From contig CAWJEN010000005.1 of NCBI GenBank assembly GCA_963841915.1, positions 640,001 to 704,000 on the forward strand: a stretch of 64,000 nucleotides of DNA, given 5' to 3'. Shown piece by piece: positions 8,299-49,132 of this stretch (positions within the stretch are counted from its first letter, which is position 1; each line of letters starts with the position of its first letter). The translations under genes were made by a program, and so were the position numbers. The DNA is from an uncultured Planctomycetota bacterium. Lineage in GTDB: Bacteria; Planctomycetota; Phycisphaerae; Tepidisphaerales; Tepidisphaeraceae. The notes beneath the pieces were generated by a model. It was not told the DNA's origin. It saw only the letters and a program-made list of their open reading frames with translations, and made no database searches.

Positions 8299-11200
8299 AT
8301 GGTTGCTGTCGACGCCGTTACTCCTTTGATGCCGCTGGCCGATTTGGGCCTTGAATTTCTGGCGTGGTGGCAGGCCGCGCTCGTCTGGCTGGCGCTGGCG
8401 GTGCCGACCGTCTGGCTGGGGCGAAAGCGTCTCGAAGCCCTCGGCACCACACGCCGCAACGTCGCGATCATCGCCCGTTTGATGGTGCTGGCGCTGGCCA
8501 TCCTCATCCTCGCCGGCTTGCGGGCCGAGCGTGACAACGACACCGTCGAGCTCATCGTCGTCCGCGACACCAGCGACTCGGCCCGCCAAGCGGTCGACGC
8601 AGCCCGCGGCGAGACCGTGATCCGTCGCGTCGTCGACTACCTTGCCGAAAACTCGGTGGGCGAAACGGACAAGCAGCCAGACGACCGCATCGGCATCGTC
8701 AGCTTCGACGCCGACGCGTACGTGGACCAGATGCCCAACAGCCTGCCGCAGGCGACCGGCAGCACGGCCACCGCCGTCAATCGCGGCACGAGCGGCACTG
8801 ACCCGAGCGAGGCCATCAACCTCGCCCTGGCAACGATGAGCCCCGACGTCCGCGGCCGCATTCTGCTGGTGTGGGACGGCAACAAGACCGAGGGCGATCT
8901 CGATGCAGCCGTCGAGCGGGCCAAGCAGGCGGGCGTGCCGATCGATGTCATGCCGCTCAATTGGGCCGCCGGTGATGAAGTGTTTGTCGAGGACTTTTAC
9001 GCCCCGACGTGGCGACGCGAGGGTGAGCCGTTCACGCTCGAAATTATCCTGAGCAACACGAGCACCTTCAACGCCAGCGGCACCCTGCGTGTCGAGCAGG
9101 AAGGCCGCCCGCTGGACCTCGACCCGACCACGCCAGGCGTGCAGGCCGGTCGACCCGTCACCCTCAAGTCCGGCCGGAACAAGCAACTCGTCGTCGTCGA
9201 CGCACTGCCGGGCGAGCGGGCGAATGTCAGACGGTTCCGGGCCAGCTTCGAGCCCAATCGCACCCGAAACACCGACGGCACCGTCAGCAACATCGGTGAC
9301 GGTCTCGTCGAAAACAACTCGGCCAGCGCCTTCACCTTCGTTCGTGGCAAGGGCCGCGTGCTCTACGTCGACAATGCCATCAACGACCGCGGTGCGATCC
9401 TCGCCGACGAACTCGCCGGCGAGCAAGTGGCCGTCGATCGCGTCGGCATCGGCGGGTTTCCGACCAATCTTGTCGACCTGCAGGCGTACGACGCGATCAT
9501 CCTCGCCAACGTGCCCGCGAGGCGCAGGCGGACTCACCGGGCCTCAGGATCTGGCACTGAGCCAGTACGTCCACGACACCGCCGGTGGCCTGATCATGAT
9601 CGGCGGGCCCGACGCATTCGGTGCCGGTGGCTGGCGTGGCAGTGCGACCGAAAGCGTCCTGCCGCTCGACATGGACGTGCCGAGTCGCAAGCAAATTCCC
9701 AAGGGCGCGCTGGGCCTGGTCATGCACTCGACCGAGATGCCCGAGGGCAACTACTGGGCCGAACAGTGCGCCATTGCCGCCGTCGAAGTGCTCAACCGCG
9801 ACGATGACATCGGCGTGCTGAGCTACGACTGGGGCATGACCGGTGGCGGCATCGGTGGCAGCCAGTGGGACTACCCGCTCCAGCCCAAAGGCAGTGGCGA
9901 CCGCGTCAAGGCGGCCATTAAGAACATGGTCCTGGGCGATATGCCCGACTTTGACGACGCCCTGACGCTGGCCCTCTACGGCACGGCAGAAAACCCGGGC
10001 CTGCTCGACAGCGACGCACGGCAGAAGCACGTCATCATCATCAGCGACATGGACCCGTCGCCGCCGAGCAACCAACTGCTCCAAGCCTACATCGACAACC
10101 AGATCAGCATCAGCACGGTCCAGGTCGCCGGCCACGGGGCCGGACTCATGCAGGTGGCCAAGAACCTTGCCGAAAAGACCGGCGGCACGGCGTACGGACC
10201 GATCGAGCAGAACCCCAGCCAGCTACCGCAGATCTTCATCAAAGAGGCGACGATCGTCCGTCGCACGCTCATCAAAGAAGACGACGACGGCATTCCTGTC
10301 GTGCCGACGCTCGACGCCGGCGCGAGCGAGCTCATGCGTGGCGTCAATCCCGAGGCGACCGGCCCGATCTTCGGCATGATCCTGACGACGCTCAAAGAGA
10401 GCCCGCTCGTCGAGGCACCGCTGCTGGCCGGTGACGAGCAGGACCCGCTGTTTGCCCACTGGACGGCCGGCCTGGGCAAGAGCGCCGCCTGGACGAGCGA
10501 CGCCATCGACCGCTGGGCCGCGCCCTTCGTCGCCAGCGGACAGTTCGGCAAGTTCTGGGCACAAGTCGTTCGCGGCGTCGCCCGTGCGCCGCAGTCGGCC
10601 GACTACGAAGTGACGACAACGGTCGAGAACGGCCGCGGCAAGATTGTCGTCGAAGCCGTCGGCGAAGACGCCCGCTTCAAAAGCGACCTCGCCGTCGCCG
10701 GCAGCGTCCTGACACCAGGCGGCGTGGGGCAAAGCGTCACGCTCGTCCAAACCCGGCCCGGCACCTACGAGGCCGAGTTCGACGCCCGCGAAGAAGGCAG
10801 CTACGTCGTCGCCCTCAACGCCAGCGGACCCGAAGGCGCAAGCGCTCTTCGCGGCGGCACGAGCGTCAACGGCAGCGAGGAACTGCTGGCACTGGCCAGT
10901 GACCTGCCGGCGATCGAACGCGTCGCCGAAGCAACGGGCGGCCGTGTGCTGCCGGCGTTTACAAAGCTGCCGATCGACAACGGTTTGTTCGCCCGGTCGT
11001 GGGTCGATGCGATGGGCAACGAACAGACGCTGAGCGAGAGCAAGAGCCCATTGCCGGTGTGGGACTGGCTGGTGCCGCTCTTGATTGCGATGCTGCTGGT
11101 AGACGTCGCCATTCGGCGGATCGCGTGGGACCGCTCGATGCTGATCGCCGCCCGCCAGCGAGTGACCGGTCAGGTCACACGACTGACGGCAACGACCCGC

Positions 11201-11464
11201 CAGGATCGCAGCGGCAGCACGCTCGGCGAGCTACGCACGCGTCGCACGGAGGTGGTCGACCGCACGAGAAAGTTCGAAGCCGCCGAGGGCGCAACGGGCG
11301 ACGTCTCGTCCTTGGGCGCCACCAGTGCCACCGCGGTCGCCGAGAGCAAGGCCAAGCCGACCGCCCGCCCGAACGAATCGGCCGCCCCCGAATCCTCCGG
11401 CGGCATCGGCTCCCTGATGGAAGCCAAACGCCGCGCCCGCGAACGGATGGAGTCGGACGAGTAG
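8299..11464 (+). CDS. Membrane-anchored vWA + glutamine-amidotransferase-like (DUF1355-type) protein (frameshift near 9514-9516)
   Basis: MIDAS-like DTSDS, vWA signatures (ILLVWDG, IIISDMD), YDAIILANVP...GGLIMIGGPDAFGAGGW, C-terminal TM; two ORFs join if one C is removed. Confidence 0.8.
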
Positions 11465-11470
11465 AGAGGT

Positions 11471-11513
11471 CCGGAGGAACGCGAAGGGGCACAAGAAGCG
11501 AAGGTCCGCGAAG
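11471..11513 (+). repeat. Left arm of imperfect inverted repeat flanking the GxxExxY gene
   Basis: ccggaggaacgcgaaggggcacaagaagcgaaggtccgcgaag; the first 20 nt are the exact reverse complement of 12019-12038. Confidence 0.9.
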
Positions 11514-11527
11514 TTCAGAAAGACAGG

Positions 11528-11977
11528 ATGCAGAGCTACTGGGACCAACTACGACTGCTCAAGACCGGTGACGGCGGCTGCGGTGACCAGCGGGCAGAAG
11601 AGCTTGCATATGCCACGATCGGGGCGGCAATCGAAGTCCATCGCACCCTCGGGCCCGGTCTGCCAGAGATCGTGTACGAAAAGTCACTTAGTCATGAGCT
11701 GACGCTGCGCCGGATTGTTCACAGTCGCCAGGCATCGGTCCCCGTACGTTACAAAGACATCAGCGTCGGCGAAGGCTTTATCGACCTTCTCATCGAGGAC
11801 CGGCTCATCGTTGAGCTGAAAGCTGTCGAGTCACTGAATCCTGTACACCACGCTCAAGTGAGGGCCTATTTGTGTGCCTCTGACCGACGTCTCGGCCTCT
11901 TGATCAACTTCAACACTGACATCCTCCGCGACTCCATCAAGCGAGTGGTCCACACGCCAAGGGCATCAACCGACTAA
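11528..11977 (+). CDS. GxxExxY protein (PD-(D/E)XK nuclease-like family)
   Basis: IGAAIEVHRTLGPGLPEIVY (GxxExxY), IDLLIEDRLIVELKAV, GLLINFN. Confidence 0.93.
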   Translation: MQSYWDQLRLLKTGDGGCGDQRAEELAYATIGAAIEVHRTLGPGLPEIVYEKSLSHELTLRRIVHSRQASVPVRYKDISVGEGFIDLLIEDRLIVELKAVESLNPVHHAQVRAYLCASDRRLGLLINFNTDILRDSIKRVVHTPRASTD

Positions 11978-11996
11978 ACCACTCTGCTGCTCAGGC

Positions 11997-12038
11997 CTTC
12001 GCGGCCCTTCGCATCTTCGCCCCTTCGCGTTCCTCCGG
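11997..12038 (-). repeat. Right arm of imperfect inverted repeat flanking the GxxExxY gene
   Basis: Reverse complement ccggaggaacgcgaaggggcgaagatgcgaagggccgcgaag; 39/43 identity to the left arm by manual alignment. Confidence 0.9.
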
Positions 12039-12053
12039 CCGAACCACAATCAA

Positions 12054-13070
12054 ATGTCTGACCCGCTGACCCCCGAACAAGTTCAAGAACGCGCCGACGC
12101 GTTTCGTCGTGATTACAAGGCGGTTCATGCCGAGATCGGCAAGGCCATCGTCGGGCATACCGAAACCGTCGACGGCGTCCTGACGTGTCTCTTCACAGGC
12201 GGCCACGCGCTGCTCGAAGGTGTTCCCGGCCTCGGTAAAACGGCACTCATCCGGGCGCTATCCGAAGCGCTGCACCTGCACTTCTCACGCATCCAGTTCA
12301 CGCCCGACCTCATGCCGGCAGACGTCATCGGCACGAGCATCATCGAAGAAGACGAGCACGGCCGCCGGGGCTTCAAGTTCCAGGAAGGGCCCATCTTCGC
12401 CCAGATCGTCCTGGCCGACGAGATCAACCGTGCCACGCCAAAGACACAGTCGGCCATGCTCGAGGCCATGCAGGAGAAGCAGGTGACCGCAGGCGGCGTC
12501 GTCCGCAAGCTCGCTCGGCCGTTCTTTGTCATGGCCACGCAGAACCCGCTCGAGCAGGAGGGCACCTACCCGCTGCCCGAGGCGCAGCTCGACCGGTTCT
12601 TCTTCAAGCTCGTCGTGCCGTACAGCAGCCGCAAGGAGCTGGCCGAGATTCTTAATCGCACAACGGCCGGTGTGACGCCCGTGGTCAACGCAGTGCTCGA
12701 TGCCGAGTCGATCCAGAAACACCAGGACCTTGTCCGCCAGGTCGTCATTGCGCCGCACGTGCAGGACTACGCGATTCGTCTCGTGCTGGCCACGCACCCG
12801 CAAGGGGAATTTGCGGTGGGTGCAACGAACAGCTTCCTGCGTGTCGGTGGCAGCCCGCGTGCGGCCCAGGCCATTTCGCTCGCCGCCAAGGTGCGGGCCT
12901 TGCTCGACGGCCGCTTCCACTGTTCGTTCGATGACGTCAAAAAGGTCGCGATGCCCGCGCTCCGCCACCGCGTCGTGCTCAACTTCGAGGCCGAAGCCGA
13001 AGGCACGACCGCCGACAGCGTGATTCAGTCGATCCTCGATGAAACCCCGACCGACGTCGGCGGCGTGTGA
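12054..13070 (+). CDS. MoxR-family AAA+ ATPase
   Basis: LLEGVPGLGKT, RIQFTPDLMPAD, LADEINRATPKTQSA, ATQNPLEQEGTYPLPEAQLDRF. Confidence 0.95.
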   Translation: MSDPLTPEQVQERADAFRRDYKAVHAEIGKAIVGHTETVDGVLTCLFTGGHALLEGVPGLGKTALIRALSEALHLHFSRIQFTPDLMPADVIGTSIIEEDEHGRRGFKFQEGPIFAQIVLADEINRATPKTQSAMLEAMQEKQVTAGGVVRKLARPFFVMATQNPLEQEGTYPLPEAQLDRFFFKLVVPYSSRKELAEILNRTTAGVTPVVNAVLDAESIQKHQDLVRQVVIAPHVQDYAIRLVLATHPQGEFAVGATNSFLRVGGSPRAAQAISLAAKVRALLDGRFHCSFDDVKKVAMPALRHRVVLNFEAEAEGTTADSVIQSILDETPTDVGGV

Positions 13071-47400: not shown

Positions 47401-48469
47401 CAAACCGGGCGAATGGACCGAATACACCGTCGACAGCGACGGCGGCGCGTTCGACATCAGCCTCAGCTACGCCGCCAAGGAAGCGACCACCAGCGATGTG
47501 CTCCTGGAGTTCAACGGCAACGTCGTCGGCACCTTCAGCAACCTGCCCAGCACCGGCGGCTGGAACAACTTCAACATCGCCAACCTCACCGCAACACTGC
47601 CGGCCGGTAGCGGTGTGCTGCGGATGACAAGCCTCGGCGACCAGGTGCACCTCGACTCGCTGTCGTTCCTCGGCGGCACCGTTCGCAACGTGCCGGCACC
47701 CGACCACCGCTGGCGGTTCGATGGAGACCTCGACGACTCCGAAGGCTCGGCCGACGGGTCGGCCGTCGGGACGCTCTCGTACTCCGGCGTCGCCGCCACC
47801 GGCTCGCAGTCGCTCGTCCTCGACGGCGGCAGCGAGTTCGTCGCCGTCGACGACAGCGACCTCGAAGACAGTTTCACCTCCTACACGCTGGCCGTCTGGT
47901 ACCGCCTCGACGCCCTCAACAACACGCAGATCCTCTACGAAGAGGGCGGCGGTGACGACGGCATCGACCTGCGTATCTCCAGCGGCGTGCTACGGGCGAC
48001 CGTCTCGGCAGGTGGTGCACGCTTCGGCCGAACCGCGCCCACCGGTCTCGGCACGAGCCTCAATACCTGGCACCTGGCGGTCGTGACCTACGACGGCAGC
48101 GACGCCGGCAGGCTCACGCTCTACGTCGACGGCTCGACCAGCTACGCCCAGCGGGCGACGAACCTTGCGTCCATTCCCGCTCACAGCGACCCGGCCGGCA
48201 TCGGCGGACGCAACGGACTTGGCCTCTACAACGGCACGAGCAGCGGCGACGGCCTCGACGGCCGCATCGATGACGTGCAGGTCTGGAACAACCGCGTCCT
48301 GACCGCTACCGAGATCCAGGCGATCTATGACGAACTCGGCACCGCCGCCGCCACGGCCACAGGCAACGGCGGCTTCAACCTCGTCCGCCAGTTTGCCACC
48401 CCAGACGCCACCCGCAGCCTGTTCTCCGATGACTTCATCGACGAGGAGCAAGTTCTGTCGCTGGTTTAA
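44471..48469 (+). CDS. Large extracellular protein: LEPRRLLA leader, Asp-box beta-propellers, CBM6/35-like module, LamG domain
   Basis: DPLEPRRLLA; Asp-boxes (SFDGGVSW, SDNYGQSW, SFDSGQSW); IEAEDFDQGG...GEWTEYTV; WRFDG...WHLAVVTYDG...GRIDDVQVWN. Confidence 0.8.
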   Translation: MKLFPTTRLARVRQAVDSVVLVDPLEPRRLLAGWQAFHPGSGGQMQDLELDPNNPGVAYSLSDVSGLTKTTNYGDTWVSLPAVNTNSLLGMEVDPHDSDHLILGTMRGVIESFDGGVSWDDLAGTTQEFGRESTTLRTGLPVATIEFDDTNSGRAYFANSWLIKNSLNVWNEFDFKNDKIVNGVRDESSDIRHPGVIYRRDPALGGDKWQQVTFEPNTANEYMNVYSIVSNPDRPQQVFVAAHTGIYRSDNYGQSWQKLPGPTDLGQIDRYASGIEVSPDGQRLYATYKLQNGFYGDLVNRDADSKPDGPSVAFYVAENITNGNNAGNTTWTKASKDLSIGLSTDGGAYSALYWNPIVDPDTTDGVDKVLLGSLGGSPGLWQADFDTGVPVNTTLADNSEWNRILFSSNRSGINGVDDLSFQYDMGWDKVNIGSRIYTFTPDNWQQANANKAGDLWVQAGQRIFVGDTTPGDETASRPWPYTPDSWVPRYTQRYDDPNDPNDAGGFETYGTTGIQSTVNFESAGYQNYIVQVKADNGLIESFDSGQSWTSQHRPALVGNVGTNGKAVQIFSNTGATPIVLAASGGGFGSNAYNFRLHAMELNTLTYADTWIDGVSTGRGLNERNVIRDITPAADGLGFYIISEASNANTNNNLPYAPGGIFYFADVRQLLNPNSSMQFQRLPMAAGEFDRQGSRIEIDPNDPNRLFVYGKDNEGGNQTGGPGNLYVYERSNGVWSSTNIDSQLDDITAWADGSQTYVAYSKASTSGGSVTSASLFLSADAGDNFTEIVTLDATNTNPAFELVLGYDFGRTITGLVGYNDSLFYGTDLAAHRKGLTMNRADISGTAGSPTVNVVDVTTVDGDTHPDPRMRRAGVIDVNGVPYIATDTSGSGLWVAPVAALLGNGGGGGGGNGQQPFGGTPRSISNGSVIEAEDFDQGGQDVAWNDTSVGNGPGGYRSGVDVDVVSRSKASNGFVIGQTKPGEWTEYTVDSDGGAFDISLSYAAKEATTSDVLLEFNGNVVGTFSNLPSTGGWNNFNIANLTATLPAGSGVLRMTSLGDQVHLDSLSFLGGTVRNVPAPDHRWRFDGDLDDSEGSADGSAVGTLSYSGVAATGSQSLVLDGGSEFVAVDDSDLEDSFTSYTLAVWYRLDALNNTQILYEEGGGDDGIDLRISSGVLRATVSAGGARFGRTAPTGLGTSLNTWHLAVVTYDGSDAGRLTLYVDGSTSYAQRATNLASIPAHSDPAGIGGRNGLGLYNGTSSGDGLDGRIDDVQVWNNRVLTATEIQAIYDELGTAAATATGNGGFNLVRQFATPDATRSLFSDDFIDEEQVLSLV

Positions 48470-48488
48470 ACTTCATCCTCGACCTCAA

Positions 48489-48519
48489 GGGCGGGGCCGC
48501 TTCGGCGGCCTCGCTTTTT
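48489..48519 (+). terminator. Intrinsic terminator
   Basis: GC stem gcggggccgc-TTCG-gcggcctcgc followed by TTTTT. Confidence 0.85.
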
Positions 48520-48628
48520 CAATGGTGAAGCATGCGTGACACACCTGTGCAAGGACTATCTGTCACACACTTCCCGCTCCTGCGAAAAGCTATAGACACG
48601 TATAGTTCTCGCGTCCAGAAGGGACATC

Positions 48629-49132
48629 ATGAACCACTCGAAGACCTCCGTCGCGAACCGCTTGATCTCGACCTGGTTCCGTTGGTTCGATCCACTCGAT
48701 GCGGCCATCAGTGGCCTGCTCGACCGCTACGGCATTCGTCTGCTGCGGTGGGCATTGGCGTTCATCTTTATCGCGTTCGGCATCCTCAAACCGCTGGGCG
48801 TCAGCCCGGCAGAAGGGTTGCTGCGGGCGACGATCGATTGGGTGCCGTTCGTCACGACCGGCTTCATGTTGCACGCGATCGGCTGGTGGGAAGTGCTCAT
48901 CGGCGTCTGCTTCTTGTGGAGGCCGACGATCCGTGTTGCGATTCTCTTGCTGGCGATGCAGATGGTCGGCACGTTCATGCCGCTCGTGCTCGTGCCGTCG
49001 GCGACGTGGCAGAAGGACGTGTGGGCCCCGACGCTGGAGGGGCAGTACATCTTCAAGAACCTGCTCATCATCGCCGCCGCCATGGTCGTCGGCGGAACCG
49101 TGCGACACCGCGACGACACGCGGCGGCTGTAA
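48629..49132 (+). CDS. DoxX/DUF417-like membrane protein
   Basis: LLRWALAFIFIAFGILK...SPA...PTLEGQYIFKNL. Confidence 0.8.
   Translation: MNHSKTSVANRLISTWFRWFDPLDAAISGLLDRYGIRLLRWALAFIFIAFGILKPLGVSPAEGLLRATIDWVPFVTTGFMLHAIGWWEVLIGVCFLWRPTIRVAILLLAMQMVGTFMPLVLVPSATWQKDVWAPTLEGQYIFKNLLIIAAAMVVGGTVRHRDDTRRL

Follow-up and report, generated by a model that had tools for sequence, protein, structure and literature searches.

The window, a stretch of 64,000 nucleotides from an uncultured Planctomycetota bacterium, contains a vWA-MoxR gene pair whose junction is occupied by a small nuclease-like gene set between inverted repeats. The features of this locus are as follows, in positions of the window:

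8299..11464, + strand: host vWA-domain gene, 5' of the cassette, with matches to the VWA_2, VWA and GATase1_like domains
11471..11513, + strand: left arm, 43 nt, purine-rich, with a terminal YCRGAGGAAC motif and four units, of which three are GCGAAG and one is degenerate
11514..11527, + strand: purine-rich leader, 14 nt, from the arm to the start codon
11528..11977, + strand: GxxExxY gene, 149 amino acids, PD-(D/E)XK fold, with matches to TIGR04256 and PF13366
11997..12038, - strand: right arm, 42 nt, holding four GCGAAG units and repeating the left arm in inverted orientation
12054..13070, + strand: host MoxR AAA+ ATPase gene, starting 15 nt past the right arm

Between the vWA stop, which ends at 11464, and the MoxR ATG at 12054 lies a junction of 589 nt, and the cassette takes up 568 nt of it from arm to arm (11471-12038). 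A preliminary description had presented the cassette as a GxxExxY gene between inverted repeats of about 43 bp, with outer 20 bp that are perfectly complementary and 39 of 43 aligned positions matching; on recomputation, both figures are correct. The inverted repeat of the cassette scores 31.5; in 500 dinucleotide shuffles, scores averaged 8.3 and never exceeded 12.5. That the arms are built of GCGAAG holds fully for the right arm only, as the left one has three units and a degenerate fourth. The CCGG described at both outer ends is present in the sequence. The ORF matches the TIGR04256 GxxExxY model with 128.8 bits (cut-off 35) and PF13366 with 127.1 bits (cut-off 22), and the gene is present as a single copy in the source genome (3.63 Mb, 94% complete). 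The 14-nt leader possibly includes a ribosome-binding site. No sigma-70-like promoter and no promoter or terminator consensus was found in 11200-12200, and the cassette matches no Rfam family. The reading frame of the vWA gene shifts at around 9500-9510, possibly owing to an assembly indel; comparable frameshifts are seen in the PriA and ABC transporter genes of another genome of the genus (G001).

The structure model of the GxxExxY protein (pLDDT 90.6) has LHK-Exo, lambda exonuclease and Cas4 SSO0001 as its top Foldseek matches. A wide structure search returned PD-(D/E)XK proteins with Z scores of up to 7.7, tied with restriction enzymes, a level that may mean only a common arrangement. No Holliday-junction resolvase is prominent among these fold matches (Hjc, at Z 5.8, is one among many), and a sequence search found no relative of solved structure. 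PF13366 is entered as a family of unknown function in the tabulation of PMC3424549. Five residues (E47, E57, D86, E96 and K98) are invariant in all 115 sequences listed, and Q110 and Y114 (Q110xxxY114) are present in 114 of them. Assigned to motifs by position rather than by residue-level superposition, they make up an intact RecB/Cas4-type active site, with a D..ExK core and QxxxY, in a minimal domain of about 120 residues whose conserved columns hold no Fe-S cysteine set. A QxxxY motif after ExK is typical of the RecB family of nucleases (PMC2475608). Because the catalytic residues are invariant and the QxxxY is of the RecB type, the protein is likely to be an active nuclease.

The left arm was recognised by profile search as a member of a dispersed repeat family. 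Searched with nhmmer, the source genome yields 45 matches to the arm profile, spread over 26 loci, whereas its reversed sequence yields none. The search for solo arms proposed in the preliminary description thus returned gene-less copies, nearly all of them hairpins of 110-200 nt, at about 25 other loci. The profile detects both arms at 18 of the 26 loci, namely 17 gene-less pairs (113-203 nt) and the cassette, while the remaining loci mostly have a degenerate partner arm, as judged by eye. Wherever both arms are detected, the purine-rich arm comes first. When one further site is added, the 27 sites comprise 18 between tandem, 5 between convergent and 4 between divergent genes, which is near the genome background as estimated with a crude gene caller. 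Two hairpins sit in frame within genes and are apparently translated (G000 is the source genome; G001-G004 are four other genomes of the same genus):

G000:C6:964455-964590 (L142): in-frame hairpin in the gene of a protein judged PriA-like by eye
G000:C6:570305-570433 (L141): in-frame hairpin in an ABC transporter linker

Two hairpins (G000:C6:1357009-1357151 and C6:964455-964590) have small separate palindromes in their loops; the core 11-mers of these palindromes are found 14 and 9 times genome-wide.

What lies between the arms is not shared. Among 24 spacers, the best pair scores 15, equal to the shuffled maximum, and the best match to the cassette interior scores 10; each spacer is therefore unique and none stems from the gene, so that no duplication of whole hairpins is visible. 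Internal deletion of the cassette as the source of gene-less copies was rejected, since the interiors of these 24 are unrelated. Arms pair with their own partner better than random (p 5e-5), an effect for which subtype structure may account; at only 4 of 26 loci is the own partner also the best. An origin of the hairpins by fold-back synthesis is unsupported, as complementarity of the spacer halves within a locus is not above that across loci (p 0.15).

The history of the junction can be followed in the genus. Three of five genomes (G000, G002 and G003) have an intact GxxExxY gene at this very junction. In the other two, G001 and G004, the empty alleles that were to be looked for at orthologous vWA-MoxR junctions are indeed present, with 24 nt from stop to ATG, and no GxxExxY gene was found elsewhere in G001 (80% complete) or G004 (98% complete). 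The GCRAAG triple-unit pattern has 42, 55 and 62 matches in the gene-bearing genomes, and 1 and 4 in the two that lack the gene. Likewise, G000, G002 and G003 carry hairpins typical of each genome in their PriA and ABC linkers, where G001 and G004 have no hairpin of the GCGAAG family. The ABC linker of G004 has a purine-rich insert of a different kind, and a stretch of its PriA linker resembles a right-arm end, possibly a deletion scar.

The GxxExxY proteins of the genus share 60-66% amino-acid identity, with pN of 0.24-0.32 versus pS of 0.63-0.71, and the gene is kept by purifying selection. The two arms of one cassette are 84-91% similar, compared with 51-65% between genomes; both arms have changed jointly, in parallel with the hairpins of their own genome. 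A host tree from three genes has the topology (G002,(G000,(G004,(G001,G003)))). Grouping the filled genomes as a clade, as expected from a single shared insertion, was rejected (p-AU 5.5e-7), so that the distribution requires either two losses or one loss plus a regain. The GxxExxY subtree (G002,(G000,G003)), weakly supported, is compatible with vertical descent and two losses; one loss followed by regain is equally parsimonious, and the data do not separate the two. Given that the cassette is an old resident of this junction in the genus, its reading as a recently mobile or excisable cassette is not supported.

The link of gene and arms extends far beyond the genus. At least 7,981 GxxExxY relatives were found among 8,000 scored candidates. 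A set of 109 loci was compiled, 30 from relatives (the source genome's own included) and at least 79 from named genomes, the latter found by a pattern biased to close relatives; two lie at contig ends. A flanking inverted repeat with a score of at least 14 is present at 87 of the 107 GxxExxY loci listed, versus 3 of 321 shifted controls, and the other 20 fall below the threshold. The loci listed carry 12 phylum labels, and their arms are generally arrays of about three C-R-C-N-R-A-G/T units.

The arms also follow the protein. On the protein tree, a quick search over 133 columns with many open forks, unit type changes 36 times versus a shuffled mean of 59.2, and none of 200 shuffles was as low (86 rows listed). 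One clade spans several phyla, and one host family holds several clades. Among 41 genomes, the generic triple-unit pattern has a median of 70.5 matches where the gene is present (n=30) and 8 in the 11 relatives where it was not found, reaching about 800 in single genomes. Typing of units gave a match for 55 of 56 loci. Of the 25 genomes with a typed cassette, 17 have one whose unit type, out of five, is also the dominant type of the dispersed repeats, compared with a permuted mean of 8.4 (p 3e-4); this value and that obtained when G006 is left out (gene-less median 7.5, p 8e-4) are overstated, since related genomes are not independent. The checks proposed at the outset, whether other GxxExxY genes have such flanks and whether arms covary with the protein, both came out in the affirmative, and, together with the empty junctions, they support gene and arms as one unit. 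The same description had named, as grounds for abandoning its proposal, arms that are an unrelated dispersed repeat. The dispersed repeat does exist; it is gene-linked, and so not unrelated.

The surroundings of the gene are diverse. The 5' neighbours of cassettes fall into 44 Pfam families (61 assigned of 80 listed), with no transposase among them and no function in common, and some are stable within lineages (LeuRS six times and homocysteine methyltransferase four times among the loci listed). Such stable and diverse neighbours suggest long residence and rare relocation of the gene-bearing copy. Only 8 of 72,556 plasmid records match GxxExxY, and no phage record did. Other genera have up to seven GxxExxY matches per genome, unlike the single copy in the source genus.

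Taken together, the cassette is an old resident and the likely enzyme partner of the dispersed hairpin family. The reading that best accommodates the observations, to which a probability of roughly 0.6 is assigned, is that it represents the enzyme-bearing member of a nuclease-hairpin partnership, analogous to RAYT/REPIN and Ssn/NTS and based on a PD-(D/E)XK nuclease. It draws on the linkage of gene and arms, their co-variation, the near-absence of hairpins where the gene is missing, the intact active site, and the lack of a target duplication. Linkage alone could produce the co-variation of gene and arms. Also weighing against this reading are the 20 of 107 loci below the score threshold, the 8 of 25 genomes whose dominant unit type differs from that of the resident cassette, repeat-rich genomes in which no cognate gene was found, other cargo between some arms, and the spacers, in which no copying of whole hairpins is seen.

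In such a partnership, the protein would bind the C-R-C-N-R-A-G unit array, in single-stranded arms or in an extruded hairpin or cruciform, and the predicted nuclease would cut at or beside the array. Host repair would then copy another family member, refreshing the arms in place, and would occasionally seed a new hairpin in a permissive slot, such as a short gap between genes, a protein surface loop or an older hairpin's loop; no target duplication would be involved. PD-(D/E)XK nucleases are not known to have a strand-transfer chemistry, which counts against this scheme. The gene-bearing copy would relocate rarely, rely on host transcription and be held by purifying selection, with the hairpins being maintained at the DNA level by an old resident nuclease.

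It is tempting to speculate further that GxxExxY is a large family of sequence-programmed hairpin nucleases, which spread and renew their own arrays by cutting and host copying without transposase chemistry, compete with other small enzyme-repeat pairs for slots by nesting and overwriting, with the symmetric Russian-doll palindromes of relatives as the outcome, and read a 6-7-nt unit code particular to each clade. This extension is put forward tentatively, as something that may well prove wrong. If it were true, GxxExxY clades would be a natural library of specificities for ssDNA or cruciforms.

Alternatively, the hairpins could be spread by a host enzyme or by another small protein family, with GxxExxY merely occupying their loops as a passenger. 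Several repeat-rich genomes fit this idea: G021 has about 180 pattern matches of three types and its one gene carries a fourth, and no gene was found in G022 (93% complete, 150 matches) or G010 (87%, 90 matches). The slots are not reserved for GxxExxY either. Of seventeen other vWA-MoxR junctions, six are occupied by hairpins that differ in sequence type and lack a gene, and GxxExxY is present in none; the PriA and ABC linkers of G019 hold two unrelated repeat types, and ORFs of other kinds lie between the arms in 2 of 14 wide pairs. Nor is the unit exclusive, since a four-helix-bundle gene in the source genome is flanked by similar GGCACRAA arrays. Against this stand the arms that frame most of the GxxExxY loci listed and track the protein tree across phyla, and the two gene-less genomes of the genus, which are without hairpins too. 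The Y1-transposase and four-helix-bundle genes of the source genome have arms of their own and occur at none of the 26 hairpin loci. A passenger role is, on balance, unlikely.

Candidates for a different partner were considered in the source genome. A RAYT or a four-helix-bundle gene was rejected, as both lie elsewhere with other arms, and a DUF559 gene was not found (94% complete). Both Y1 matches are away from all 26 hairpin loci, and one comes with a repeat family of its own. An ORF judged by eye to be valyl-tRNA-synthetase-like (L164:1302-1971; G000:C3 ~48085-48750) contains a Y1/RAYT-like transposase domain, fused in frame together with its inverted repeats; about 29 arm matches of this repeat family are dispersed over the source genome. 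The four-helix-bundle gene (TIGR02436, TGA-interrupted) lies between 36-nt inverted GGCACRAA arrays (L165:1412-1870; G000:C6 ~1616512-1616970), inserted in a dnaE2-like gene, named by eye, with a 1,287-codon frame open through the whole insert.

Further observations concern the slots themselves. GxxExxY is found just downstream of MoxR in four family genomes, and the vWA-MoxR junction of G006 (L021) is empty. Two junctions with gaps of 416 and 560 nt (L018 and L019) hold short ORFs without inverted arms, so this slot accepts other cargo too. Arms of GxxExxY type appear to frame an HNH-like ORF in G040 (L192:122-732) and a PEP-CTERM-like ORF in G031 (L193:85-903), both named by eye. In G032, G021 and G024, hairpins are stacked like Russian dolls, with two or three nested inverted arm types (L195, L198, L199, L201 and L205), and in G038 CACGAAG arrays are paired with CACAGAT arrays. 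The inner arms of nested hairpins may resemble RAYT-, DUF559-, four-helix-bundle- or NTS-type repeats. This suggests that hairpin slots may be reused by successive element families.

A second alternative, raised in the preliminary description, is that the cassette is an mRNA intervening sequence. The arms would pair in the operon transcript, loop out the ORF and be processed or bypassed so that vWA and MoxR expression stays coupled, and the protein may act on the stem. The arms do form a long stem in the predicted transcript fold. Outside this stem remain 6 + 15 = 21 nt, near the 24 nt of the empty junction, but a plain insertion into a short gap would leave the same remainder. Co-orientation with both neighbours is seen at 42 of 75 callable loci, a modest excess with crude ORF calls. 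In contrast, pairing in RNA predicts tolerance of G·U on the sense strand, and no preference for it over A·C was found in 69 cassettes (75 G·U versus 77 A·C mismatches). Gene-less copies also lie between convergent and divergent genes, at near-background frequencies, the two in-frame hairpins are apparently translated, and there is no Rfam match. An RNA-level role is accordingly improbable.

The same description had suggested that CCGG might double as a target duplication. Since the hairpin ends vary as YCRG with inverted complements (e.g., TCGG/CCGA or CCAG/CTGG), CCGG belongs to the arm itself rather than to a duplicated target. The end motifs are inverted rather than direct, and direct repeats of at least 3 nt were seen beside 6 of the 87 cassettes listed versus 12 in controls, with element ends set by alignment, so that a duplication of 1-2 nt may have escaped notice.

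Least probable is a domesticated host tool that, as SsnA/NTS in Neisseria, would cut ssDNA at repeats to control recombination or incoming DNA, with the hairpins as host-selected marks and not a replicating population: the single copy, purifying selection, long residence, RecB/Cas4-like site and an arm-gene-arm arrangement as in NTS-ssnA-NTS favour it, whereas two of the five genomes of the genus lack the gene, the search of 41 relatives did not find it in 11, its neighbours lack a common function, and the origin of new hairpins is left unexplained. This reading is compatible with a nuclease-hairpin partnership.

If the nuclease-hairpin partnership is correct, it would place a third enzyme fold, besides those of HUH transposases and GIY-YIG nucleases, in partnership with dispersed hairpins. 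It would also account for an abundant class of repeats that rewrites protein loops too, for example in PriA, and bear on the origin and persistence of REP-like repeats. GxxExxY is a large cross-phylum family without assigned function; the DNA flanking each of its genes offers a candidate substrate, and the family could be a source of small site-specific ssDNA or hairpin nucleases. Among the papers listed for GxxExxY, PF13366 and PDDEXK_3, mostly from outside subscription journals, no title or abstract opening describes such a pairing with hairpins.

Among known systems, RAYT/REPIN (REPtrons) and TIRYT/TIRtrons consist of a single-copy chromosomal gene, mostly vertically inherited and framed by repeats, and RAYTs are likewise described as rare on plasmids and phages (10.1101/2021.07.10.451892; PMC3733652 for the former). 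The cassette gene is similarly single-copy and vertically inherited within the genus, and framed by repeats that it may serve. As with REPINs, the repeats are dispersed inverted doublets of about 100-200 nt with a variable spacer, mostly extragenic and in some cases inside genes, and the population is smaller where the gene is missing, as seen in the genus. Unlike RAYTs, which are HUH/Y1 transposases, the GxxExxY enzyme, whose ORF matches PF13366 and TIGR04256 only, is of the PD-(D/E)XK type; each arm is a series of tandem 8-10-nt units rather than a palindrome of about 14 bp, with no palindrome listed within the arms; and the gene is found at dozens of different sites under 12 phylum labels.

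SsnA is a GIY-YIG ssDNA nuclease, and activity has been demonstrated for Ssn (PMC11893778). With Ssn/NTS the cassette shares a small single-domain nuclease gene, the repeat-gene-repeat order, dispersed hairpins, cognate pairs and the lack of a transposase, although cleavage is here predicted from the active site. It differs in its PD-(D/E)XK fold, with no GIY-YIG match in the ORF, and in that each NTS is itself a hairpin, while here two unit arrays pair across a spacer or gene. The cassette thus belongs to neither RAYT/REPIN nor Ssn/NTS, as its enzyme is not HUH/Y1 or GIY-YIG and its arms are unit arrays.

Prokaryotic MITEs and Rickettsia palindromic elements, as presented in PMC10969869, resemble the gene-less copies in being short and non-coding, with terminal inverted repeats and in-frame insertion into housekeeping genes. 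Unlike MITEs, the hairpins have no target-site duplication and no common interior, and no cognate DDE transposase was found. At the level of the enzyme, the closest likeness is to RecB, Cas4 and lambda-exonuclease nucleases, in which the D-ExK core is followed by a helical QxxxY (PMC2475608), from which GxxExxY differs in its minimal size, its lack of the Fe-S cysteines and its modest structural score.
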